Below are positions 1,769 through 15,930 of a stretch of 15,930 nucleotides of DNA, one piece after another. The notes below the pieces were generated by a model, which had not been told where the DNA came from, did no database searches, and saw only the letters and a program-made list of their open reading frames with translations. How positions within the stretch are numbered: position 1 is the first letter of the stretch; each line of letters starts with the position of its first letter. The stretch comes from Nitrosopumilales archaeon (GTDB taxonomy: Archaea > Thermoproteota > Nitrososphaeria > Nitrososphaerales > Nitrososphaeraceae): assembly GCA_044507735.1 (NCBI GenBank), contig JBIQJB010000027.1, forward strand, positions 8,533 to 24,462, given 5' to 3'. The translations under genes were made by a program, and so were the position numbers.

Positions 1769-1783
1769 AAAAAGAATAGGTGA
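1769..1783 (+). promoter_or_regulatory. repeated leader/Shine-Dalgarno element AAAAAGAATAGGTGA, copy 2
   Basis: Identical to 1164-1178. Ends 8 nt upstream of ATG 1792. Confidence 0.6.
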
Positions 1784-1791
1784 AAGAGCAA

Positions 1792-4305
1792 ATGGAAAAC
1801 AACAACAACAACAATCAAAACAAAGAAGCGACATCGACCGAGACGATAAGGTCCACACAGGTACCCCAGATGTCAGATGTTTCTTCCGGCACCGACGCCG
1901 AGGCAATCAGCACAATCTACTACAAGCCCACGCTTGTAGAAGAAGACCCGCTGCCGCTTGACAGCAGTCAGCTCTCCTATGCCTCCAAGCTTCTCCAGGC
2001 GTCAAGCAACGGCCTAATCCCCGTCAAGCTGGAGCAAGATGTCATCATACAGCGCATATCGCACGACCTGTACTCCGACCCCAAGTCGGGATTCAGAGAG
2101 CTGTACAACAACGAGGCAAGGGCGTGCAGGATTGCCCGCAGGAACTACCCCGGCACAGACCCGCGCATAGTCGTGGCTCTAAACCCCTCAGAGCGCAAGC
2201 TGGTAATCCACGGAATCGACAGTATGGGGATGTCGCAGCAAAAGTTCCTCACCGTGTACACTGTGCTTGGCAGGAGCGACAACTTTGACTCGAAGGAAGT
2301 CGGCCAGTTTGGCTGCGGCCGCGCGAGCTATGTCACGCTGTCAGATATAATGGTGCTGGAGACGTACAGCAGGGAGACAGGCGAGAAATTCGCGGTAATG
2401 GGCAAGAACGGCGTCGGCTACAACGTGCTGCCACAACCTGCCGACCTTGACAGCTACGGCACAAGGATAGCCGTCACGCTGCGGGACGACATCAGCATCC
2501 CGGACCTCGTGCAGTACATTTTCGATGTCTGCAGGTTCTCCGGCGTCAGGACCACCGTCGAGCTTGAAGCCGACATAGACGACTTTGGCGACTCGTTCCA
2601 CGCGGGGCAGTACGAGCTTGGGCTGGAAAGCATGAAAGGTCACGTTGCCAGCATCCGCGAGAAGAACGGAGACGAGGAGAAACTATTGCTGGCCGTGGAA
2701 ATAGCAGACGACCCTGACATCTATCTGTACGGCGAGATAATCGCCTGCAAGAGCAGCTGGGAAGAGGATTACACCAGGATACTTGACAGGCAGTCCTCTT
2801 CTTCCTCGGCCGGCACGTATCTCGTCAACGTCCCGATTGAGGGCGACCCCGGAGAGCTGCCCCTTTCCCGGTGGATACTGAACATCAGAGACGAGAGAAA
2901 GTTCCCGCCCACAGCAGACAGGGAAAGGCTGACCGATGCTGCAATTACAGCCATCAGGGAAAAGATCATGGAAGCGCTGAAGCAGAGGCTTGAACCTGCG
3001 CTAAGGCTGGAATCAGTATCAGACTATGCGCGCTCGCCCTACCGCATCCTGTACACCTCTGGCACATACCACTACAGCAGCGGATTCGCCGAGCGCCTGC
3101 TGCCGCTGCTTGACGACCACACCAGGGAGGTAGTGGCGTTTGTCAGCACAAAGGTGCATGTGCTGCGCAGAAGGAGGCATGGCAGCAAGATGTGCAGGAC
3201 ACAGACAAAGATCTCCAGCCTGATAGACCGCCACCACCAGTACAATTGCATGCGGCTGTTCTGCGTCCGCAACCTCAGGTCTGCCGCCGCAGACGCGCTG
3301 AGGGAGAAGGCTGCGGGCGAGGTCTTTGAGGCCGACTCTGGGCTGACCGAGCTCATGGCCAAGTTCGGAGTGATAGACGGCGACCGGTATGTGAAGGAGA
3401 ACAACCTAAAGCGAACGACCTACGGCGAACCGGACACCATCACCGCCTACTACAGGCGCGGGTACAGCACATACACTGAAAAGATACACATCGACAGCAT
3501 TGTGGCAGAAGCTGAAGGCAAACAGGAGAAAGAAGAAGGAGAAGAAAGCGGCGTCTCAGGACATCCCAGACAACACCGTCTGCTACTGCCGCCGCTGATA
3601 GCCATGACATCTGAGCAAAAGGACGAGTATGCGCAGCTGATGGAACATGACACAAGATACAGGATAGTCGTGTGCGGCAGAAAGGACGCCAGAAAGAAAA
3701 GGCTGCTCGCCGGCAAGTGCACCTTCCTGGACGAATTTGTGTCCGCGGTGGCAATGAAGCATGTCATGACCTCGATGGGCACGATGACAGTAGAGGAGAC
3801 GCTTGAGTGCATCAGAGAAAGAGGCATGGAAATGGCGCAGCTTGTATACGACGACCCGCAGGCGCTGGCAGCATCCACTGCAAGGCTGCTGCATGGAAAT
3901 GGCGACGGCGACAGCCGAAAGGCGATACTGCCAGTCGTGGTCCCTGACGAGGACAGCAGGTATGAACTGAAGGTGTTCTACCGGTACCACGGGGTGGCCA
4001 CAACCCTCGGCTGGCGCGATGTGTTCAAGAAAGTAGAGCAAGGGTTGCTTGACGGTGAAAGACGCCTCGACGAACAGAAGGCAAACGCGATGATGCATTC
4101 CATGGCGGCGTTTGGCGGGCGGTACCCGGAGCTCTTTGAGCTGCTGGCGCACGCGATGGCAGATGCCGAATACTACAACATAGAGAAATTGCGCGGTTGT
4201 GCTTTCTCGCTGGCTGCCATGCTGGACGAGAGAGATGGTAATAGCAGCACGGCACATGCAGATGCAGCGGAATGCCTTGCCAAGGTCACCGAGCAGGGGA
4301 AGTAA
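1792..4305 (+). CDS. GHKL (Hsp90/HATPase_c-like) ATPase with long uncharacterised C-terminus
   Basis: Bergerat-fold motifs in order: DLYSD..FRELYNNE (ExxxN), DSMGMS, GQFGCG (GxxGxG), YGTRI. A later PTADRERL resembles the Hsp90 middle-domain SRE Arg loop. Start placed at ATG 1792 after the SD (track start 1780). Confidence 0.85.
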   Translation: MENNNNNNQNKEATSTETIRSTQVPQMSDVSSGTDAEAISTIYYKPTLVEEDPLPLDSSQLSYASKLLQASSNGLIPVKLEQDVIIQRISHDLYSDPKSGFRELYNNEARACRIARRNYPGTDPRIVVALNPSERKLVIHGIDSMGMSQQKFLTVYTVLGRSDNFDSKEVGQFGCGRASYVTLSDIMVLETYSRETGEKFAVMGKNGVGYNVLPQPADLDSYGTRIAVTLRDDISIPDLVQYIFDVCRFSGVRTTVELEADIDDFGDSFHAGQYELGLESMKGHVASIREKNGDEEKLLLAVEIADDPDIYLYGEIIACKSSWEEDYTRILDRQSSSSSAGTYLVNVPIEGDPGELPLSRWILNIRDERKFPPTADRERLTDAAITAIREKIMEALKQRLEPALRLESVSDYARSPYRILYTSGTYHYSSGFAERLLPLLDDHTREVVAFVSTKVHVLRRRRHGSKMCRTQTKISSLIDRHHQYNCMRLFCVRNLRSAAADALREKAAGEVFEADSGLTELMAKFGVIDGDRYVKENNLKRTTYGEPDTITAYYRRGYSTYTEKIHIDSIVAEAEGKQEKEEGEESGVSGHPRQHRLLLPPLIAMTSEQKDEYAQLMEHDTRYRIVVCGRKDARKKRLLAGKCTFLDEFVSAVAMKHVMTSMGTMTVEETLECIRERGMEMAQLVYDDPQALAASTARLLHGNGDGDSRKAILPVVVPDEDSRYELKVFYRYHGVATTLGWRDVFKKVEQGLLDGERRLDEQKANAMMHSMAAFGGRYPELFELLAHAMADAEYYNIEKLRGCAFSLAAMLDERDGNSSTAHADAAECLAKVTEQGK

Positions 4306-4311
4306 AGAAAG

Positions 4312-5334
4312 ATGGCATCGGTCCGCAGCGACAACAACGGCGGCACAGTACCACAGCCAGCAGCTACAACAACCACAACAACCATCCTCGAGCGGCGCAA
4401 AGACGTGTACGTGCTCTTGCTCGCAGGGGGCAGGGTCGTGACTGTCCCAGCCACGCCGTACAACAAGCTAAAGTACGAATACTTCCAGGGCGGCAGGATA
4501 TCGTACTCTTTTGGCGATGACATAGGGACAGTGCAGGAGACGTACAACGACGGCATATTCAATTGCACGTACAGGGACATGTCGATGCAGATACGTTCTC
4601 GCGATGTACTGGCGGTCGCGATACTGGAGCACATGCGCCACATCGGCGGCCCTTCTCTGTACGAGTCACTGTTCAGGGAAGAGTACGAAAAGCTGCACCA
4701 GGCTGACCTCCTGAAGTACATGCTGGCAGGCTACAGGGACAGGGTGCGCGTCGTGACCATGGCAGGCGGCGGCAGAATGATGAAAGAAGCTGCGCCGGAC
4801 ATGGACGTGTACATAGACGACGGCCTGTTCAGGATAGACGCCCATGGCAATGCCAGCGTGCTCGCACTGGATGAAGATGGCGAAAGCAGGAGAGAGATGT
4901 ACAGGCAGATATGCATCGTCGCGCACGGGGAGATAAGAGAGAGGAGCATAGAGACGCCCATTGGGCCCGTCAGGATGAACGAGCAGACGGTGACGACGCT
5001 GGCAAAGGCGATGTTCCTGCTCGACCCGGACCTCGAGGACGGCGTTTTCACCAGGCAGCTGCCGCCCCTGGTGATCGAGGAGCTGAAGGCCCGAAAGCAT
5101 GAGCGGCAGGAAGGGGCGAAGGCCGAGTCGACGATGACGACAACAATGTCTGTCCGCAGGCTGGTCAGGGTCATCAACGACGCGTTGCGCACAAACGACG
5201 CCGCGCTTGTCCACACCCTCGTGGCTCATAACGCCCACAATGCCGAGAGGGCACTTGAATACCTCCCTCCAAGACACAGGTTTTTTGTCAAGAACGCGCT
5301 TGCACAGGTTACATCGGGTCCTGGCGCAGGCTAG
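4312..5334 (+). CDS. hypothetical protein, coupled to the GHKL ATPase
   Basis: 340-aa ORF starting 6 nt after the GHKL stop. No family recognised. Confidence 0.8.
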   Translation: MASVRSDNNGGTVPQPAATTTTTTILERRKDVYVLLLAGGRVVTVPATPYNKLKYEYFQGGRISYSFGDDIGTVQETYNDGIFNCTYRDMSMQIRSRDVLAVAILEHMRHIGGPSLYESLFREEYEKLHQADLLKYMLAGYRDRVRVVTMAGGGRMMKEAAPDMDVYIDDGLFRIDAHGNASVLALDEDGESRREMYRQICIVAHGEIRERSIETPIGPVRMNEQTVTTLAKAMFLLDPDLEDGVFTRQLPPLVIEELKARKHERQEGAKAESTMTTTMSVRRLVRVINDALRTNDAALVHTLVAHNAHNAERALEYLPPRHRFFVKNALAQVTSGPGAG

Positions 5335-6692: not shown

Positions 6693-6913
6693 GTGAATAA
6701 GGAATCTTATTTCAGATGGGGCATGACACGAGCCGCCGCGTCTGCTCCTGCCACCATCCTCATGGTTATACTCCTCATTTCTGACACAAGCGGGGTCTCT
6801 GCGGTATCACTGAAAGAACGACATGAAGTGGTGGATACGGTGGGGGCGGGTAATGGTCCAGGGGGCGTGGCGGTAAACCCCATTACCAACAGGATATACG
6901 TGGTTAATTATTT
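6693..6913 (+). pseudogene. 5' part of a secreted YVTN beta-propeller protein, interrupted by the integrated element
   Basis: Signal-peptide-like segment (probable ATG 6723), then VVDTVGAGNGPGGVAVNPITNRIYVVNY, a YVTN blade that breaks at the TAATTATTT core. The frame continues at 15505. Confidence 0.85.
6905..6913 (+). repeat. attL core TAATTATTT
   Basis: Matches 15505-15513 and marks the exact point where YVTN homology stops. Confidence 0.85.
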
Positions 6914-6953
6914 GAGAATATCGCTTTCCACAAGCGTCTAATGCACCAAAAGC

Positions 6954-6975
6954 GTTGCATAACTTGTTGCATAGT
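6954..6975. repeat. left-end arm-type motifs (GTTGCATAAC-TT-GTTGCATA)
   Basis: GTTGCATAAC 6954-6963 is the exact reverse complement of GTTATGCAAC at 15483-15492 and 13984-13993. Two TGCA units 12 bp apart at both ends. Confidence 0.7.
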
Positions 6976-7158
6976 CGCACCGTTCAAAACAAACCGTGAA
7001 AAAATAGAAATACTAAGCTTTTACTTTGGCAACTATCAAGTAACACTAACAATTTTCCCGACTTTATTATTTGTTATCTGGTATATCTATCCCCCTACTA
7101 GCCCACTGATTCTGTCAGTTCTAAGCATTGTAATTGATCAAAAGAGGTTATCTAGCTA

Positions 7159-8523
7159 GTGGCTCAGATACGTGCTGACAAAGTACAGACAAGAAAAAGC
7201 AGACTAAGGGTTAAGGGATTAAAGGTCAAGGATAGAGAGAAGATCAAAGAAGCTATTGCAATCAGCATCCGAAACGGTAATTACACAACAAGAGAAATTG
7301 GCGTTGACATAGGCAAGGACCATAGCACTATATCGCGATATCTAGGTGAAATGGAAAGAGAAGGTACTTGGGGAATAAAGCGCGATGTCAACGGAAATAT
7401 CGTTATATCACTACAAAAACAGATAGAGCAAGCTTATCAAAAGTTAGATAGAGCACCGTTCAATAAACTGCCAGCTATACAGAAGTGGTTAGTATATTTG
7501 AAGTCTGGCAGGCTACAAGCTTCCCGCATTCAGTACGTTGTAAACATTGTACATGGGATATCTGACCAGCTTAAGGTGATGCCAGAGACGCTAGTTAGCT
7601 ATGGCATACCGATTGACTCGACAAAGAGAAAAGAAATAGCTATTGAATACTGGCAGAATTTCTTGGCATGGTTCAATACCGCGTACCCGCAGATGCAGCA
7701 TATAAACACCGTCAACGCGTACAGAAGCTTTCTTGCAGCTCACAGCATCAACTTTGCACATGGTGAGGGCAAAAGGTACGGGCTATCTACAACATCAGAG
7801 AGATTAGGAGAGTACAAAGATATCCTCTTGACGCCAGAACAGATTGCGGCAATTAACAAGAGACTTGAAAATGAACGCGATTGGGAATCTTGGAGCTTCA
7901 TGAACATTGACCTGCATACAGGAGCTAGGGCTTTTGCAATGGCATCTATGAACCGGGACAGAATAGCCTTTTCTCCACTGTTTAGAGTGGAACAGTTCGA
8001 GTCCAAGATAAAGCGTGGTGACTGGTATCTGACTAGAGAAGGCAAGTGGTGGGTAAAGTACCCAACAGAAGAATGCAGAGCTGTTGTAGAGACAGCTTAT
8101 GACAAACTTCCAAAAGGAAGGAAATTCCTGTTCTTTGAAGATGCAAAGAGTGAGAAGGCAAATGCTCTGCAAGCTTCTTATTTCATGTCAAAAATGGCTG
8201 TCAAATTCAAAAAGATATTTTCAGAGCTTGACAGAAATAGTTGGTTAAATGAGAAGACTAGGATATACGCGCTTGGCGATGGTCTGTACTTTAATGGGCA
8301 TCCATTGCATCTATTCAGGCATACTATGGCTCAGTACTATCTAGCTGCCACAAATTGGTCGCTCGCATATGTGGCAAGCTTGGGTGGTTGGGAGAATACA
8401 GAAGTGTTAAACAAGTGTTATGGAGGCATTCCAGAGCATATCAAAGCGCAAATAGCCAAGTGTGTTCATGTCAAGTTTGATACTCTTGATCTCAACACTA
8501 CGGTTAAACTTGTTTCGGTCTAG
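7159..8523 (+). CDS. tyrosine recombinase/integrase with N-terminal HTH
   Basis: Catalytic set R (HTGAR), K (ESK), HxxR (HLFRH), W (LGGW), Y (NKCY). N-terminal wHTH-like TTREIGVDIGKDHSTISRYLGEME. Adjacent to attL. Confidence 0.92.
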   Translation: MAQIRADKVQTRKSRLRVKGLKVKDREKIKEAIAISIRNGNYTTREIGVDIGKDHSTISRYLGEMEREGTWGIKRDVNGNIVISLQKQIEQAYQKLDRAPFNKLPAIQKWLVYLKSGRLQASRIQYVVNIVHGISDQLKVMPETLVSYGIPIDSTKRKEIAIEYWQNFLAWFNTAYPQMQHINTVNAYRSFLAAHSINFAHGEGKRYGLSTTSERLGEYKDILLTPEQIAAINKRLENERDWESWSFMNIDLHTGARAFAMASMNRDRIAFSPLFRVEQFESKIKRGDWYLTREGKWWVKYPTEECRAVVETAYDKLPKGRKFLFFEDAKSEKANALQASYFMSKMAVKFKKIFSELDRNSWLNEKTRIYALGDGLYFNGHPLHLFRHTMAQYYLAATNWSLAYVASLGGWENTEVLNKCYGGIPEHIKAQIAKCVHVKFDTLDLNTTVKLVSV

Positions 8524-8620
8524 TGCAAAGCTATCTGGGATAACAATTCTAGTAACTTAAAAGAAGATTAATCATATAGAAATGTTTTTCTTTATTCTTG
8601 TTAATGGACAGATAGCATAC

Positions 8621-9382
8621 TTGGGGAAGCATTACGAAAATTGCGTCAAATGTGGCAGAAAGGTCGAGTATAAAGGTGAGTACTCATCCGAGATTCCACA
8701 GGTAGTATGTCACGAATGTTCCCACTGTGACGCATGCGGTGGACTCACGAACAATAAGAAAAATGGACTTTGTGGAGATTGTCGGACTGTAATTGCACAA
8801 AAGGCAAAAGAAATTTTCTTTAACGTCCTAGATGGTGTTTCAATAAGCAAGCAGCAAAGAAATGGAGTCACATTTACTATCTACTTTGCCAAAGACATTG
8901 ATAGCAAGCTCAGAGTATTAGAAAGGGTCGATCTGGCTGACAAGCAGGAAAAGAAAGGCAGATGGAGTCTGTTTAAGAAAAATGAAGCGGAAAGGAAGTC
9001 ATTAACTCAACCATTCCACATTCTTTCAACTTTGCTCAAAAAGACTCCCATAAGCAGCAATACGGTCAAAATAGAAGTGAACCTTACTTTCAAGCAGAGA
9101 TTTGGATCATTGATTTCTGGCGGCAATTATGACTATAGGCAGGGAATAGATGAGGGATATACTGTTCATGTGGTAGCAGAAAGTGACGATAGTTGTACAA
9201 TTCCAATAATCACCAAAATCCTCAGAGAGGAGCTAAAATTCGGCTGTCATGTCAGTAACAGAACTATCGATGGTTTTCTGCCATTTGTAAATCCAACGCC
9301 GGAAGGCGAAGAAAAGTTAGCACAAGAAGTAATAAAGAATGTTATTGCAGCCTTCGATCCGGGACAACATAGGGTTCTGTAG
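8621..9382 (+). CDS. hypothetical protein with N-terminal multi-CxxC zinc-binding domain
   Basis: CVKC, CHEC, CDAC and CGDC motifs. TTG 8621 chosen as start (track start ATG 8582) because the paralogous microprotein at 9647-9808 aligns from KH onward. Confidence 0.8.
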   Translation: MGKHYENCVKCGRKVEYKGEYSSEIPQVVCHECSHCDACGGLTNNKKNGLCGDCRTVIAQKAKEIFFNVLDGVSISKQQRNGVTFTIYFAKDIDSKLRVLERVDLADKQEKKGRWSLFKKNEAERKSLTQPFHILSTLLKKTPISSNTVKIEVNLTFKQRFGSLISGGNYDYRQGIDEGYTVHVVAESDDSCTIPIITKILREELKFGCHVSNRTIDGFLPFVNPTPEGEEKLAQEVIKNVIAAFDPGQHRVL

Positions 9383-9464
9383 CATCTTCGTTTGATTTCC
9401 TGCCTGTTGCATCGCGTTTGATCAAAATTTGTTTATATAGAAATTAACTCTCCAATTATCCTGC

Positions 9465-9650
9465 TTGGTAGATTATCATACTCTGCATGGGGATAGTCCT
9501 TGCCAATGTCCAAAATGTAGGGAAGCAAGAAAAAATCTAACATGGGAACCGACTCCACAAACGCCTATAACATGCCAGTGTCCTAAGTGCAAAGGTCTAC
9601 GCGCTCACCCTGCCGAAGAACCGAAAAAGGAAAAGCGCAAGTGGTTTTAA
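9465..9650 (+). CDS. Cys-rich microprotein with two CQCPKC repeats
   Basis: 61 aa. TATA-like TTTATATA at 9432-9439, about 25 nt before a leaderless TTG. Confidence 0.7.
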   Translation: MVDYHTLHGDSPCQCPKCREARKNLTWEPTPQTPITCQCPKCKGLRAHPAEEPKKEKRKWF

Positions 9651-9808
9651 TTTTCGCTAAAAACTCCTTTCAACTTCTTACCACACTCATGGCATAGTAT
9701 CTCGGCAGGTTCCTGTCCGTACGGGCTTTCATATTCAACACGCGCACCACATTTAGCGCAGTTTTGAAAATGCTTGACCGGATAGTATTTTTTGCGCCTC
9801 TTGAGCAT
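9647..9808 (-). CDS. Zn-ribbon microprotein (53 aa, not in ORF track), paralog of the N-terminus of 8621..9382
   Basis: Manual translation: MLKRRKKYYPVKHFQNCAKCGARVEYESPYGQEPAEILCHECGKKLKGVFSEN*. Aligns ungapped to KHYENCVKCGRKVEYKGEYSSEIPQVVCHEC. Confidence 0.8.
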   Translation of the reverse strand: MLKRRKKYYPVKHFQNCAKCGARVEYESPYGQEPAEILCHECGKKLKGVFSEN

Positions 9809-9866
9809 TTTCTTAAGGTTATGGCAGCCTGCTTATATAGTCAATTGCCGTGTTAGTTTAGCTAGA

Positions 9867-10433
9867 TTGGGATTATTCGACTCAATATTTGGAAAGAAAC
9901 ACAACGTAGAGCGAGGTAAGGAAGTTGAACAAGACTTCAAGGCACAGAGAGAAATAATGGGAGAAAAGGTTGAGCGAACAGGAATAGGCTCTGATTATAA
10001 AATTACTCATCCAGCCAATCCAATTCTAGGTCGCAGAAAACGATCTGAATATTGGGATACAAAACGTAATGATTCACCTGTATCTGAAAGACAAAAACAA
10101 ACACGGGGACTAAAGATTTATCGTCATTACGATCCTTCTCCCGAAAGACCACTTGGTGAAACCAGAATTGAAAACACTAATGGTGACAAATTGGAATATG
10201 ATTATCTTAAGGGCAACTACGTAAAGGCAAAGAAACAAAATAATGATTTCTTCAGTTACGGCTCTTCAACTCCTCGGAAGCGAAAGTCAAACTCATGGGA
10301 TCCGTTTGGCTCAGGGTCATCCTCTCGTAGACGCAATGATGATTTACTAGGTGGATTCAGCGCTGATAACATGTTTGGAGGCGGATCATCTGGAAGAAGA
10401 CGAAAGCGTAAGAACGACCTTTGGGGATTCTAA
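9867..10433 (+). CDS. putative PD-(D/E)XK-fold nuclease-like protein with low-complexity S/R/G tail
   Basis: RGKEVE...VERTGIGSDY...YWDTK...SERQ matches the E..D..(D/E)xK arrangement of restriction-endonuclease/Hjc-like folds. TTG 9867 follows TATA CTTATATA 9832-9839 (track start 9792). Confidence 0.6.
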   Translation: MGLFDSIFGKKHNVERGKEVEQDFKAQREIMGEKVERTGIGSDYKITHPANPILGRRKRSEYWDTKRNDSPVSERQKQTRGLKIYRHYDPSPERPLGETRIENTNGDKLEYDYLKGNYVKAKKQNNDFFSYGSSTPRKRKSNSWDPFGSGSSSRRRNDDLLGGFSADNMFGGGSSGRRRKRKNDLWGF

Positions 10434-10617
10434 GAGAAGTCGCGTTAGCAAAAACAGAAGAAATTAAGACTCCAATAATGAGATTTTTGCAGATAGAAGA
10501 AAAGCTGAAAAGGCGTTTTGGAACAAAGACAAGTTAATGTCCCCTGTTTTTTGTTAGTAAAAAAACACTATACTATCTACTTAAATATTCGACTATTGTT
10601 TTCTTTGGTTAAACTCC

Positions 10618-10791
10618 ATGAGCGGACATAGCAGACGATGGGATGACCGGGATAGGCAGTATGAGAACTCGCAAATTTATGGAGGTGCTTATTCCAGATA
10701 CGGTCAGACACCATGCAGATGTCCTGCATGTAATCACAAATTCCATTATGAGTGCGTCAGTGCGAGATGCAAGTGCTGCGCAGGTGGTTGA
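10618..10791 (+). CDS. Cys/His-rich microprotein (57 aa, not in ORF track)
   Basis: MSGHSRRWDDRDRQYENSQIYGGAYSRYGQTPCRCPACNHKFHYECVSARCKCCAGG*. TATA-like CTTAAATA 10580-10587. The stop directly abuts the TTG of the J-domain gene. Confidence 0.7.
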   Translation: MSGHSRRWDDRDRQYENSQIYGGAYSRYGQTPCRCPACNHKFHYECVSARCKCCAGG

Positions 10792-12042
10792 TTGAGCAGG
10801 AGGTCTGAAACGAAGGATGGTAATAATCGGTGGAATTACTATTCTTCTGGCGATTCTCCGAATCTGAGCCGTTACGATTGCTACTCCATACTAGGGATTA
10901 CGCATAATGCCGATGAACATGAAATAAGACGAGCGTACAGGCGGCTCGCGCTACTTTACCATCCCGATCGCAGCAAAGACCCAGAGGCTACAAATATCTT
11001 TAGAGTAATTCAGATGGCGTATGACACTTTAATAGATAAGGGAAAGCGGCGCTCTTATGACTCGACAATTCCGGCTATCGGAACCATGAAATCTGAAACA
11101 ACAATCAAGGTCATTCTTGAAGGTACGCTCACGGAAGGTTTCTTGCTTGATGATCGTGCGGCAATTAGCATTGCAGGTTCAGACGAGGCTATAGTGTTTG
11201 AGAATAGCATTACAGTCCCGATAGCGTGGATTCACAGTCAGGGAGAGCATAGACAATACTCTATATTCACAGATGTGGCATTTGAAAGGTTATTCCGCGC
11301 TGTCTACAAATTGATGGATCCAAAGGCTGATCTGGATGATTTAGAAGTATACGGTGTTCCTGAACTACGAGCACACTTTGATGCACGGTTTTGGAATAGA
11401 GGACAGACGAATGTGTCGGTTTATTGTTACAGTTCTATGAGTTTCACAATCATCGACGGCGTGCCATATCTGTACATGCATGGAGCAAAGTATCATCACA
11501 GTCGCTATGAAATTACAATGGACTTCTACATGAAGCTGAAAGAAGTAATTCAGAATGCAATCAAGGCGGAGCTAACTGGAACAGTTGAACCCCCTGTAGA
11601 TGTTAATCCTCCAACAATGTTTGAGCCCATAAAACACATTAGCGAGCTGAAACTTCCGCCAAAAGAAATATGCATGGCATTTGCAAGGCTTTGCAGAACG
11701 CAATCTGCACAGGCAGCTGTTGAGTTTCTGTCGAAGATATACGGAGTCCCGGCAATGAAGACAGTGTTTCAGCACAGGTTTCCTGTTAACGACATGGTGT
11801 GCAGGGATGCGATTGCAGTGTATTACACAGACGATATGACCGCGTATTTCAAACCTGAAGGAACAAGTATGAGGACTATCTTGCATGAATTTTATCATCA
11901 TCTTGTCAACTGCTATGGTGTGAAAGATATGCTGGACTATCAGATTCTTCCTGATCCTGTTACTGGATACTATGCCCGTAATGAAAGAGAAGAGAGGGCT
12001 GCCGACAGCTTTGCTGAGACATTCGTCAGGAGAGTTTTGTAA
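10792..12042 (+). CDS. DnaJ J-domain protein fused to a C-terminal zincin-like (HEXXH) metallopeptidase domain
   Basis: YSILGI...EIRRAYRRLALLYHPD...AYDTLID..KRRSYD is a J-domain with intact HPD. ILHEFYHH followed by EERAADSFA is the HEXXH plus downstream ExxAD/N pattern of ImmA/IrrE-like peptidases. Confidence 0.85.
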   Translation: MSRRSETKDGNNRWNYYSSGDSPNLSRYDCYSILGITHNADEHEIRRAYRRLALLYHPDRSKDPEATNIFRVIQMAYDTLIDKGKRRSYDSTIPAIGTMKSETTIKVILEGTLTEGFLLDDRAAISIAGSDEAIVFENSITVPIAWIHSQGEHRQYSIFTDVAFERLFRAVYKLMDPKADLDDLEVYGVPELRAHFDARFWNRGQTNVSVYCYSSMSFTIIDGVPYLYMHGAKYHHSRYEITMDFYMKLKEVIQNAIKAELTGTVEPPVDVNPPTMFEPIKHISELKLPPKEICMAFARLCRTQSAQAAVEFLSKIYGVPAMKTVFQHRFPVNDMVCRDAIAVYYTDDMTAYFKPEGTSMRTILHEFYHHLVNCYGVKDMLDYQILPDPVTGYYARNEREERAADSFAETFVRRVL

Positions 12043-12046
12043 TTAG

Positions 12047-13363
12047 ATGGTAAATTATACTTGGGGCGATAAATGGGACGAGCGCGAAAAGGAAGAACAA
12101 CTTAGACGATATTACGGACCCGGTGGCGGTTATAGAGGTGGTAGCTCCAGTGGTGGCGGCTCTGGTGGTGGGAAAGGATACACAAGCTATCCCAGACGTG
12201 GAGGTCATACTGGAAGAAATATAGGCATCGTACTCGTAGCTGTGGCGGCTATCGGGGGACTGATATTCTTTTTCAACCCCCTAGGAATAGACTTCTTTGA
12301 TAATCGCACTGCTAATAATGAAAGCACTTCAAATATTCCAGCAGGAAACGCAGGCGATAACAAGCACGAACCTGAGACCACAAAGGTAGAGTACGTCGTT
12401 GAAACAAGGACGCTTACTGTGCTCAATGCTGGAGCTTTCCTGAGCGCAGATGATGTCAGATCATTTAATCTACAGATACCAAACAAGGACGTTAGCAAGC
12501 TCGAAGGGACGATCACTGTCGATGGAGAGCAATTTGTTAATGTTGAGTTCCAAGATGCTTTTGGCGGCGTATATTGCGATCAATGCTCATACAAGGTGTA
12601 TGGCGAAAGCTCAGGCAAGGCGGAGAGCGCACAGAATAACAAGGTTGACATACCAGTTGATTCAGGCGATGCATTGAAACTTCTTATTTCAAATGGAGGA
12701 GACGCAGAACTCCAGACAGTCAGCATCAATCTCTATGTTACATATGAGGAAACGGTTGAGAAAGTCATTCAACCAGTTGCGGAGGAGGAACAGACAGAAC
12801 CAGAAGTAACTCCTGTAGTAGCGGAAGAGGAACCAGAGACAGAACAGCCTCAATCAAAGCCGGAACCTGCATCGGGCATCGGTAGAAATATTGACCCTGA
12901 TGAACTTGCAGCCAGGATACACGACCTCATCAATGAAGAAAGGGTGAGTCGCGGTTTAGCAGCTCTCAATTGGGATTCAAAACTAGCTGGCATTGCCGAA
13001 AGGCACAGCGAGGATATGGCTGAAAACAACTATTTTGAACACGATAACCTAAAAGGTCAAGACCCTACTGCAAGAGCGGAGGCCGCCGGATATGATTGTC
13101 GAAAGAACTTTGGCAGCTACTATACCGTTGGCATTGCTGAGAATATCTTCCAAGCGTGGACATACGATTCTATCACTTACATCAACGGCATCCCGTTTTA
13201 TGATTGGACCACACTTGAAAAGCTCGCAAATGATGTAGTGCAGGGATGGATGGGCAGTCCGGGACACAGACAAAACATACTCGATGAACAGTATGACAGG
13301 CAAGGCATAGGCGCAGCAATAGCATTGAATGACAAGATTTACATCACTGAGGACTTTTGTTAA
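12047..13363 (+). CDS. membrane-anchored CAP (SCP/PR-1) domain protein
   Basis: Gly-rich N-terminus, TM helix IGIVLVAVAAIGGLIFFF, acidic P/E linker, then CAP motifs INEER, AERHSEDM, AENI and WMGSPGHRQNIL. Confidence 0.9.
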   Translation: MVNYTWGDKWDEREKEEQLRRYYGPGGGYRGGSSSGGGSGGGKGYTSYPRRGGHTGRNIGIVLVAVAAIGGLIFFFNPLGIDFFDNRTANNESTSNIPAGNAGDNKHEPETTKVEYVVETRTLTVLNAGAFLSADDVRSFNLQIPNKDVSKLEGTITVDGEQFVNVEFQDAFGGVYCDQCSYKVYGESSGKAESAQNNKVDIPVDSGDALKLLISNGGDAELQTVSINLYVTYEETVEKVIQPVAEEEQTEPEVTPVVAEEEPETEQPQSKPEPASGIGRNIDPDELAARIHDLINEERVSRGLAALNWDSKLAGIAERHSEDMAENNYFEHDNLKGQDPTARAEAAGYDCRKNFGSYYTVGIAENIFQAWTYDSITYINGIPFYDWTTLEKLANDVVQGWMGSPGHRQNILDEQYDRQGIGAAIALNDKIYITEDFC

Positions 13364-13364
13364 A

Positions 13365-13910
13365 ATGACAGCATCCTCAGAGCCGACTCAAGGAGAAGAG
13401 TTGTGGCAGACATCTAGCACTGGAAGACAACATTGCAAGTGGGATCGCCTACCAGAAAATTTGAAGACTCGGATCAAAAGAGAGGATGGGTTTGAAATCA
13501 AGATAGGGGATTACTTCTATGAATATCATCGCTTTAGCGGCAATGTCTATCGTTGGAAAAAAGATGTGCCAGCAGCTCAATCGAATATAGAGAGGGGCGT
13601 ATGCCACTTTTGCGGGAAAAATGAACCATTCGCTTATGTCTGCACTTATTGCAATCAGAACTTCTGTCTTAAGCACAGGCTTGCAGAAATGCATGATTGC
13701 ATCAAGACCCGTTATGTAAAATACATAAGGAAGGACTGGTTGAGAAAGTACGGTCAAAATATTACTACTGGAATGTACTATGTAGTATGTGATCAGTGCG
13801 GTTATGAATCAGACTATGGTCTCATAGAAGTTGCAGGTGCGATGCTGGTTGAACATATCAAAGCTAAAGGTTGTGATGAATCAAAGATATTCTTGCAGGG
13901 TGGGGGCTGA
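13365..13910 (+). CDS. AN1-type zinc-finger protein
   Basis: CHFC-x9-CTYC-x3-FCLKHR-x3-MHDC is the AN1 Zn-finger pattern, with an extra CDQC..H..C site. ATG 13365 lies 1 nt after the CAP stop (track start 13329). Confidence 0.85.
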   Translation: MTASSEPTQGEELWQTSSTGRQHCKWDRLPENLKTRIKREDGFEIKIGDYFYEYHRFSGNVYRWKKDVPAAQSNIERGVCHFCGKNEPFAYVCTYCNQNFCLKHRLAEMHDCIKTRYVKYIRKDWLRKYGQNITTGMYYVVCDQCGYESDYGLIEVAGAMLVEHIKAKGCDESKIFLQGGG

Positions 13911-13945
13911 GCTGGTTCATACATGGAAAGGCAATAGATGTTATT

Positions 13946-14014
13946 TGTTGCATCTAATATTGCCCCTAGTTTAACTGCCTCTCGTTATGCAACATAACGG
14001 TAAATCGACTAGTC
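13946..14014 (+). repeat. internal copy of the element right end
   Basis: 13946-13994 matches 15445-15493 at 40/49 positions with no gaps (manual count), including TGTTGCAT and GTTATGCAACA. Confidence 0.85.
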
Positions 14015-14040
14015 CATATCAACCTGAGCCTTGATATTTT

Positions 14041-14087
14041 GGTTTATAAACCTATATTAGTTGATAAACTCCATTACGTTTATAAAC
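14041..14087. promoter_or_regulatory. three GTTTATAAAC-type palindromes at 18-bp period upstream of the ATPase
   Basis: GTTTATAAAC 14042-14051, GTTGATAAAC 14060-14069, GTTTATAAAC 14078-14087. Confidence 0.65.
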
Positions 14088-14102
14088 TAAAAAATTAAGA
14101 TC

Positions 14103-15386
14103 ATGGTTGAAATAACAATGGGAAATGTCTGGGAAGACCTCGGATTTACAGGCAATCCATACGATCCCCGCGCACTGTCAATAAGCGACGAGGACAGAAA
14201 ACTACTAATCGACAGAACTGACGAACTACGGATGTTAACTACTCTGGCCAATTCTGGCAGCAGAGGTATCATAATAGTAGAAGGAGGCATTGGAGTTGGA
14301 AAAACTAGCTTGGTTAATGCCATGCAGTATGATTTGTTACATCAGAAAAAGAACAAAATTCTGCCAGCATTTCAAAAGATTGAACTCACGAATGACAACA
14401 TAGAACCCAAGAGTTTCACCCTCTCCACATTTTCTAACATGATATTCAGTCTTGAAAAATTAACGAATACAGACTTGGCAAAACAAACAGGTATATTGAA
14501 GGAAGGAAAGTTGCTGGTTGCTCAAACCATCCAATCTGGCTTTGCAGGAAATCTCCAAGCCTTTGGTTTTGGTGGTGGAATGTCACGTAGCCCGTCTACC
14601 AGTCAACCGGCCGCTGTAACATTGCCTGCGATATTGAATACAATGGATAGATGGGTAGAATATGTATCAAAGAATACCGAATATGATGGGCCGGCAGTTA
14701 TCCCTGTGAATAATATGGATGTCTTGGATGACAAGGAAATCGTATCTTTTCTTAACTCAATGCGAGACACCATTATTGATAGACCGCATATCGTTTGGAT
14801 ACTGATAGGAAGAAAAGGTCTGTTCTCTTTGCTTGAAAGTGAAGCTAGAAGGGTTAGCGAAATAATAACAGGCCAACCTGTGGTACTCCAACCGCTAACA
14901 TTACAAGATGTATACAACGCGATAAAGGTGCGTATCGAATTGCTAAGCCGAGACAAGAAAAGTAGAGATAGTGTAGTCTCTGACGAGATAGTAAAGATTC
15001 TGTATGACACTTCACAAGGAGAGATACGATATGTTTTCAAAAGAATAACTGATATCATACTCAGATTTAGAGGACAATTCCCGTCAATTTCAAAAATTCC
15101 ATTAGATGTTGCAAAATCGATGATCATCGATTTTGCAAAGTCACGAATAGATGCACTGAATTTATCTCCAAAAGAAATAGCTGTGCTCAAAAACATTGTC
15201 AAAAAGGGGTCAATGCGAACAAGGGAATACCAGAGTGTAGGACTGCAAACTCCTCAAGCATTGAATAAGTATCTTGCAAGCTTTTACAAACAGAATTTGG
15301 TGGTAAAGGAGTATGGAGAAGGGAGAGCTGTCTACTATAGACCAACAGCAGATACAATCTTTGCCCTCCAAGACACCACTAAATAA
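14103..15386 (+). CDS. AAA+/P-loop ATPase with C-terminal winged HTH
   Basis: N-terminal WEDLGFTGNPY, Walker A GGIGVGKT, atypical Walker B VIPVNNMD, GEIR motif, and C-terminal wHTH (LSPKEIAVL...ALNKYLASFYKQNLVVK...RAVYYRPT). Possible alternative start ATG 14118. Confidence 0.85.
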   Translation: MVEITMGNVWEDLGFTGNPYDPRALSISDEDRKLLIDRTDELRMLTTLANSGSRGIIIVEGGIGVGKTSLVNAMQYDLLHQKKNKILPAFQKIELTNDNIEPKSFTLSTFSNMIFSLEKLTNTDLAKQTGILKEGKLLVAQTIQSGFAGNLQAFGFGGGMSRSPSTSQPAAVTLPAILNTMDRWVEYVSKNTEYDGPAVIPVNNMDVLDDKEIVSFLNSMRDTIIDRPHIVWILIGRKGLFSLLESEARRVSEIITGQPVVLQPLTLQDVYNAIKVRIELLSRDKKSRDSVVSDEIVKILYDTSQGEIRYVFKRITDIILRFRGQFPSISKIPLDVAKSMIIDFAKSRIDALNLSPKEIAVLKNIVKKGSMRTREYQSVGLQTPQALNKYLASFYKQNLVVKEYGEGRAVYYRPTADTIFALQDTTK

Positions 15387-15444
15387 ATGCAAAATATGTG
15401 ATAGAGAGCATTTTTACGAAGGAATACACTTTGATTTCTGATTC

Positions 15445-15513
15445 TGTTGCATATAATATTACTCCCGGTCTGACTGCATCTTGTTATGCAACAAAATCGA
15501 AAACTAATTATTT
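15445..15513 (+). repeat. right end of the element: arm-type motifs plus attR core TAATTATTT (15505-15513)
   Basis: TGTTGCATA 15445-15453, TGCATC 15475-15480, GTTATGCAAC 15483-15492, then the core identical to 6905-6913. Confidence 0.85.
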
Positions 15514-15930
15514 TAACAACACAGTCTCTGTAATTGACGGCGCCGAAAACACGGTGATAGAGGCTGTGGGGGGTGGGTGTTCATCCACAACGTGTGGCGG
15601 TAAACCCCATTACCAACAGGATATACGTGGCTAATAATGGCGGCGGCAGAGTCTCTGTAATAGACGGCGCCGAAAACACGGTGATAGACACTGTGGGGGT
15701 GGGTAATGATCCATGGGGCGTGGCGGTAAACCCCGTCACCAACCTGGTATACGTGGCTAATAGTCTTGACGGCACAGTCTCTGTTATCAGCAACACGTAC
15801 GCCGATGTGATGGCAATCACGGACTCTGTCTCCGCAGCCACAGTACGGGTACGCCCTGCCGCAGAAGCCATGTCGGCTACTGACTCGGTCTCTGCTGCGC
15901 TGGTCGGCGGCCGGCCAATCTCTGACGCGC
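15505..15930 (+). pseudogene. 3' part of the YVTN beta-propeller gene (with +1 frameshift in a G run), runs off the window
   Basis: NYFNNTVSVIDGAENTVIEAVG, then G6 at 15568-15573 (G5 in sister repeats). The shifted frame reads VGVHPQRVAVNPITNRIYVANNGGGRVSVIDGAENTVIDTVGVGNDPWGVAVNPVTNLVYVANSLDGTVSVIS followed by M-x2-TDSVSAA repeats. Confidence 0.85.

Follow-up and report, generated by a model that had tools for sequence, protein, structure and literature searches.

How does a small mobile element come to carry the sequence of its right end twice, once at its border and once in its interior, and is the interior copy still used by the element's integrase? This question is raised by a stretch of 15,930 nucleotides (nt) from a Nitrosopumilales archaeon (NCBI GenBank assembly GCA_044507735.1, contig JBIQJB010000027.1, positions 8,533 to 24,462 of the forward strand), which was analysed as a whole and is referred to as the window; positions are counted from its first letter. 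The window contains an 8.6-kb element (6905-15510) with a divergent tyrosine-recombinase-type integrase, a variable cargo and, between the two right ends, the gene of an AAA+ ATPase. In an earlier note on this DNA, the inner copy was taken for a duplicate of the element's own right end, and the locus for a cassette-like, possibly integron-like system that accretes cargo. The sequence comparisons presented here favour, with a probability of roughly 0.6, an accretion with a fossilised junction: the element would be a composite of a resident element and a 1.45-kb module, and the inner copy would be the scar left at their joint. Comparisons were made within the source genome (2.3 Mb) and among 72 genomes of one genus, Nitrososphaera according to the names of the homologues.

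The two right ends and the module between them

The ungapped match of 40/49 positions between 13946-13994 and 15445-15493, reported in the earlier note, was obtained again with the same count, and a repeat search extended it to 59 nt at 78% identity with a spacing of 1499. A profile of four other true right ends recovered the inner copy from the whole source genome at E 8.6e-10 (profile positions 1-58), and a model of 20 right ends from which the inner copy was excluded gave E 2.8e-10 (positions 1-59). The scan with a profile of the 49-bp end, which the earlier note had proposed, thus finds the inner copy at E ~1e-10, and values of this size exclude chance. With at most one mismatch allowed, the window contains the short motif TGTTGCATA 10 times, where 4.75 would be expected; 2 of 200 shuffles reach this number.

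The two copies are preserved to different degrees. As had been described before, the arm motifs are kept in the inner copy and the stretch equivalent to the core is different: the inverted arms and their spacer are recognisable (E 1e-10), and the linker and core, from ~13998 onwards, are gone or can no longer be recognised, with TAAATC or CGACTA in place of TAATTA. The last 12-17 nt of the inner copy fit no other right end or linker class, and of the 36 matches listed for the genus, the window's own locus left aside, all end at or before 13997, except one at 14005. The outer end is the best match of the right-end model (E 1.5e-22) and is 47/49 identical to the right ends of other elements.

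A duplication of the element's right end in situ, by slippage or unequal exchange and followed by divergence, would account for the shared orientation and register of the copies and for their 40/49 identity. However, the inner end carries the CCCCTAGT arm variant, and its arms agree at 44/49 positions with right ends in two other genomes (G031:C104 and G062), compared with only 40/49 for the outer end, which in turn is 47/49 identical to other elements. The DNA between the copies is, moreover, a module that occurs independently. In-situ duplication is therefore extremely improbable, and the idea that the inner copy derives from the element's own end does not hold.

The segment between the copies holds one open reading frame (ORF) of 427 amino acids (aa) with AT-rich palindromes upstream, in agreement with the earlier note. 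The palindromic stretch in front of the gene is probably a promoter/operator region or a set of iteron-like sites for the module's own protein. The module, from ~14011-14017 to 15392-15510 depending on the partner compared, recurs at 89-93% nucleotide identity in three genomes (G061, G085 and G082) and in the metagenome contig L068, and a 70-76% version is present in two short contigs; its flanks are unrelated in each of these contexts. In the window, L054 and L068, the left border of the module lies within ~10 nt of the same point and abuts the core-like sequences GGTAAATC, GGTTTAATTC and AAGTAATTA, respectively. Behind the module, the window, L068 and a second metagenome contig, L067, have a complete right end, and G061 has none.

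L068 is the one example in which the added unit stands alone, bounded by attachment (att)-type sequences and free of an integrase. Here, the unit measures 1497 bp, closes with a full right end and is framed by 9-nt direct repeats AAGTAATTA; no integrase was found within 10 kb on either side, and no right-end arm upstream. After removal of the unit, no ORF longer than 38 aa runs across the junction, so that the insertion is intergenic and therefore lends no extra support. The accretion of cargo that the earlier note had envisaged is thereby supported, since a one-gene module with its own right end does occur separately; the other parts of that reading, an inner copy made from the element's own end and an integron-like series, are not.

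Behaviour of the element family and proposed history of the composite

The source genome contains five integrase copies with 81-100% identity, plus one decayed copy. The five copies have the left end, the small ORF and the integrase in common and nothing else, and the cargo differs. The 66-nt right end is present on the same contig in four of the five, and none was found for the copy on contig C40. In related genomes, the integrase family was detected by protein search in 8 of 61, and the right-end model gave 149 matches in 34 of the 72 genus genomes, including three matches from the unpublished genomes G088 and G009. The linker classes of these ends include AAAATCGAAAG-TAATTA, AAAATTACAGTT-TAATTC and AAAATAACCATT-TAATTA.

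Three junctions bear on how members of the family meet. A perfect junction of right end, TAATTA and left end is present in G031:C53, and the finished genome G061 retains a remnant of a right end/left end junction. In G029:C19 (L029 10344-10487), two full elements stand head to head and their left ends share one TAATTA; inverted elements around a single core mean that orientation is not fixed by the core, which fits its palindromic sequence. These arrangements support the view that elements of the TAATTA family insert at each other's ends.

Such junctions also bring in a different origin for the composite, in which the resident right end received a complete second element in tandem, whose left end and integrase were afterwards deleted to a position immediately upstream of the ATPase gene, so that no integrase-less mobile unit would be needed. 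The full-element junctions of G031:C53 and G061 speak for this course of events, as do the many truncated integrase copies in relatives and a right end in G062 that adjoins a C-terminal integrase fragment. Independent deletions should, however, end at different points, and the module starts within ~10 nt of one position in the window, L054 and L068; furthermore, L068 lacks an upstream right-end arm and an integrase. We regard tandem insertion with deletion as rather unlikely.

The mobility of the whole composite is indicated by L067, which equals window positions 10744-15513 at 99.6% identity, both right ends included; beyond the core, and likewise to the left of 10744, its DNA departs from that of the window. 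Because the same composite is found with a different flank, it appears to move as one piece. The 17 differences between the window and L067 are unevenly spread: 12 fall in the ATPase module (14413-15260), five of them within 15115-15137, and only 5 in the 3.2 kb upstream, where three belong to one 3-nt deletion. The module may thus have a separate recent history, for example as a recombination patch. In the assembled Logan contigs of four read runs, those of runs X15 and X16 span the inner copy unchanged; altogether, the intact composite was found at two loci and in the contigs of three runs.

Double right ends are rare in the family. A second right end inside was found in none of the 13 other elements that have, on one contig, a right end and an integrase (or a fragment of one); three of these are in the source genome and ten in relatives. 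Among the 149 matches, five pairs lie on the same strand within 5 kb (window, G095, G065, G085:C7 and G093), the G065 pair being homologous to that of G095. With at most two right ends per locus and 0/13 other elements with an inner copy, the integron-like series of modules that had been suggested finds no counterpart here. The inner core is altered to TAACAT in G095 and G065 and to AAATTG in G085:C7, so that the inner core or linker is damaged in four of the five close pairs, the window pair included; in a wider pair of 10.4 kb in G084, the upstream site has no linker. No intact integrase was found in the DNA upstream of the other close pairs, over 11-13 kb in G085:C7 and G093, ~15 kb in G095 and, where the contig ends, only 3.8 kb in G065. 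Stable doublets with a damaged inner site fit the idea that composites persist once their junction can no longer be resolved.

It could instead be supposed that the inner copy is a live secondary site, at which the integrase releases a 7.1-kb short form of the element or a 1.5-kb mini-circle with the ATPase gene. The spacer and the two arm motifs are well preserved (E ~1e-10), the family tolerates some variation of the core, and the module alone with a right end exists in L068. However, of the conserved linker (AAAATCGAAAG or AAAATTACAGTT type) nothing or only a shortened form is left, TAAATC or CGACTA occupies the place of the TAATTA core, and the composite is intact at two loci and in the contigs of three runs. 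No joint at the inner site is listed among the contigs of the four runs, which, as contigs only, is weak and not evidence either way; the two joints that are listed, 6850>15584 and 6962>15487, lie in the YVTN repeat of the flanking gene and in an arm motif (one side <30). A live inner site is quite improbable on this evidence, and alternative excision, which the earlier note had considered, seems unlikely.

From the observed repeat, modularity, family behaviour and movement as a unit, we infer the following order of events. A resident element, consisting of the left end, small ORF, integrase and cargo, would once have ended at 13946-14003. The 1.45-kb module, with palindrome-rich control DNA, the ATPase gene and its own complete right end, would then have joined behind this resident end, most likely through the family's recombination at each other's TAATTA cores, the newcomer being either a partner unit devoid of an integrase or what was left of a second element. 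Subsequent loss of the linker and core at the junction would have fused the two parts. The integrase would now use the left end and the outer right end, and the composite would move as a unit; the inner copy, as a scar, may still bind protein at its arms and is unlikely to be cut.

Several observations weigh against this history. The core is not invariant: the left junction of the element on contig C46 reads TAAATA and class B right ends have TAATTC, and because the integrase tolerates such variation, the inner TAAATC might be usable. In G093, it is the inner site that is intact and the outer site that is degenerate. The single left border of the module is blurred by L053 and L055, which have ~75 nt extra at this side, preceded by the right-end-terminal-like sequence CGAAAGAATGRTT. 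The right end behind the module is inverted in G085 and cut after 11 nt in G082, and the unit of module and right end is therefore itself unstable. As for L068, its repeats could result from an integrase-mediated internal deletion, and an empty site for its unit was found in 0 of the 72 genus genomes, a result that is uninformative.

Further observations concern the diversity of the family. The decayed integrase copy of the source genome (G000:C19:8776-9415) contains many stop codons. In L031 (G029:C1) and L038 (G031:C104), the right end is of the TAATTC type and the integrases are only 70-78% identical; in place of the class-A left end, the DNA upstream of the integrase is of another kind and contains a small gene on the reverse strand. 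These two look like a second subfamily with a left end of its own. Orphan right-end-like sites of the TAATTC class occur at G000:C52:43123-43187 and G000:C3:152988-153052, among ordinary-looking chromosomal genes; no integrase match was found on C52, and none within 67 kb of the C3 site.

Encoded proteins, cargo and insertion site

The coordinates of the features are collected in Table 1.

Table 1. Features of the element in the window, from left to right.
Feature	Position	Strand	Remarks
Left core TAATTA, 6-bp palindrome	6905..6910	.	repeat extends to TAATTATTT, 6905-6913
Left end	6911..6979	+	direct arm motifs GTTGCATA at 6954-6961 and 6966-6973
Small ORF, 72 aa, hydrophobic stretch	6941..7159	+	overlaps left-end arm motifs
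Integrase, 454 aa	7159..8523	+	N-terminal helix-turn-helix (HTH) and divergent tyrosine-recombinase domain
Variable cargo	8582..13910	+	DnaJ-domain 10792-12042, CAP-domain 12047-13363, zf-AN1 13329-13910 (Pfam)
Inner right-end relic	13946..14003	+	inverted arms TGTTGCAT...ATGCAACA and 31-nt spacer kept
Module start, AT-rich	14012..14102	+	palindromes GTTTATAAAC and GTTGATAAAC; kept in L053, L054, L055, L068
AAA+ ATPase, 427 aa, C-terminal winged helix	14103..15386	+	Orc1/Cdc6-like fold
Outer right end	15445..15504	+	arms, spacer, linker AAAATCGAAAAC; functional-looking
Right core TAATTA	15505..15510	.	right copy

The ATPase shows the architecture of Orc1/Cdc6 proteins, namely an AAA+ domain with lid and a C-terminal winged helix, and the Walker A motif GVGKTS is invariant. 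The AlphaFold2 (AF2) model (predicted local distance difference test, pLDDT, 85) has as its top Foldseek matches the archaeal and eukaryotic Orc1/Cdc6 structures 7jgr_A, 1w5t_A, 2v1u_A, 1fnn_A and 2qby_A (E 1e-9 to 2e-8, template modelling (TM) score 0.41-0.55); by fold, 2qen and 2fna, two archaeal AAA+ proteins, are matched no less well than Orc1/Cdc6. Sequence-based searches were less telling: in Pfam, ATPase_2, AAA_16 and AAA_22 matched weakly, under their cut-offs, and no Cdc6 family did; the best PDB profile match was the P-loop region of TnsC (E 2e-4), and a plain sequence search of PDB gave no match. PADLOC returned only weak Avs4/mad8 P-loop matches, and NCBIfam nothing above cut-off. 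The gene is sporadic, being present in 5 of 72 genus genomes and 13 of 401 genomes of the order, and one distant relative (25% identity) is encoded in a 67.5-kb viral contig.

Six distant homologues in other genera (L082-L087) were inspected, and each has its own palindromic repeats upstream; in L082, short palindromic repeats are also found downstream of the gene. This pattern suggests pairs of protein and DNA site that co-evolve, and because the homologues have palindromes of their own, the cognate sites of the ATPase would probably be its upstream palindromes and not the right ends. The protein may act as a replication initiator or an autoregulator.

In principle, the two copies might be binding sites around the ATPase gene, such as origin boxes, a terminator or RNA hairpins. 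A stop codon precedes each of them by 36-59 nt, each includes a 9-bp inverted repeat, and the ATPase has an Orc1/Cdc6-like fold. Nevertheless, the 66-nt site also ends 13 other elements without the ATPase, and the upstream palindromes of distant homologues are specific to their lineages and do not resemble the right end, which makes such a role very unlikely. Two particular forms of it were rejected. For the RNA hairpin, 0 of 9 stem pairs were changed on both sides among 20 copies of the 49-nt site, and the fold of the inner copy did not surpass that of shuffles (z -1.4); for the origin box, right ends occur on elements without the ATPase, and ATPase homologues have their own upstream palindromes.

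A tentative extension of the composite history concerns the ATPase unit itself, which is conceivable as an integrating mini-replicon that lacks an integrase and combines iteron-like palindromes with an Orc1/Cdc6-like initiator and one right-end att site. The TAATTA integrases, as a transposon-like family, would mobilise it in trans, and it would land in either orientation, with a preference for resident cores. If this were true, the window would hold one capture frozen in place, and the process would be a cassette capture analogous to, and independent of, the accretion of bacterial cis-mobilizable elements (CIMEs) as well as integrative and mobilizable elements (IMEs).

The integrase is a divergent member of its class, with four further copies of 81-86% identity in the source genome. 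It scored E 0.1 against PF00589 and E 0.0016 against phrog_216, and homologues at 83-86% identity reached 24.9-26.4 bits against the PF00589 cut-off of 27.1. Of 36 distant homologues found with a family profile, 18 match PF00589 at E<=0.001, 11 of them above the curated cut-off. Tyrosine recombinases share a conserved R...HxxR...[H/W]...Y pattern; R257 (in TGAR), H384, R387, W411 and Y421 are invariant in 20 family members and are likely to be the catalytic residues. The HTH domain may bind the GTTGCATA arms. The AF2 model (pLDDT 44.7) was too poor for use, and sequence and profile searches of PDB gave nothing useful. The 72-aa ORF in front of the integrase has a counterpart with 51-71% identity in every class-A element (tblastn) and no match among protein families; it could be an excision/directionality factor or a small membrane protein.

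The borders of the element were confirmed where the earlier note had placed them, with the direct repeat TAATTATTT at 6905-6913 and 15505-15513 and low-GC DNA between the two copies (~42%, range 37-47%, compared with ~56% on the left). The TAATTA core is found at the left junction in four of five elements of the source genome and also in relatives, and the left end is kept in the five copies of the source genome (profile E 3e-25). A YVTN-repeat gene is the insertion target. It is precisely interrupted, with the short identical core TAATTA(TTT) at both junctions (6905 and 15505), and the repeat unit becomes whole again when ...IYVVNY to the left of the element is joined to NNTVSVID to its right. 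Two uninterrupted relatives of this gene were found: a contig of run X16, which tracks the left flank to 6908 and then resembles the right flank, and G081:C191. A tRNA gene as target was discarded, as no tRNA lies within the window.

The cargo shares no DNA with the other elements of the source genome, and its zf-AN1 region has no DNA homologues in the genus genomes, for which reason no short-form ancestor could be identified. A paralogue of the DnaJ-domain cargo protein (73% aa identity) is encoded at G000:C33:29115-30323, on a contig without an integrase match. To the right of the element, at 15540-15930, the YVTN gene loses its single frame: it stops after ...AVGGG and the repeat goes on in another frame, which means either that the disrupted gene became a pseudogene or that the 126-nt repeats are misassembled; contig C18 terminates at the end of the window. 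Upstream of the element, two long ORFs (841 aa and 340 aa) at 1780-5334 are without a Pfam match.

Significance and relation to known systems

The locus provides a junction-level record of cargo gain in the small integrase elements of soil ammonia-oxidising archaea, and it points to a mode of gain in which elements insert at each other's ends, the internal site decays and the units become welded. With its conserved ends and 6-bp core, the family is easy to recognise and could help to flag the mobile DNA of these genomes; its integrase and att site form a candidate pair from which genetic tools might be built for a group still lacking them. Of greater interest is whether the ATPase unit represents a genuine partner element that lacks an integrase.

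The attP site of phage lambda contains arm-type sites. A likeness to it lies in the short repeats (GTTGCATA) away from the crossover core on both arms and in an integrase with an extra DNA-binding domain. In the present family, however, the extra domain is an HTH and not the N-terminal fold of lambda Int, the choice of target is loose, and arm binding is a prediction from sequence. Integrons combine the integrase gene intI, the attI site and attC cassettes, and the present system resembles them in having one tyrosine recombinase and single-gene units that each end in a recombination site. In contrast to integrons, there is no attI-like site beside the integrase, no more than two right ends per locus, no folded-strand signature or covariation in the sites and no common promoter for the cassettes.

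A closer parallel is the tandem accretion in which integrative and conjugative elements (ICEs) or IMEs join with CIMEs, as described for the ICESt1-type islands of streptococci (PMC5704250). Common to both would be a composite with an internal att-like site, recognisable here by its arms, that can move as a whole, and decayed partners without an integrase. The present case differs in its archaeal host, in its divergent HTH-fused integrase, in the lack of conjugation genes and in a 6-bp palindromic core that is used at many chromosomal sites, not at one tRNA or gene end, the inner core having been lost.

In archaea, including thaumarchaea, elements with tyrosine recombinases re-use occupied sites and form arrays (Krupovic et al. 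2019 PMC6563490; Badel et al. 2021 PMC8371274). Their att sites can be as short as 8 bp, tandem elements exchange modules (PMC6563490; PMC8371274), and thaumarchaeal cryptic integrated elements often carry Orc1/Cdc6-like genes (PMC6563490). The TAATTA family, its 66-nt right end and a one-gene module with only a right end are not described in the consulted passages of these two papers, whose supplementary tables may contain members. Accretion itself is thus known from bacteria and tandem integration from archaea, and the family of integrase elements is newly outlined here.

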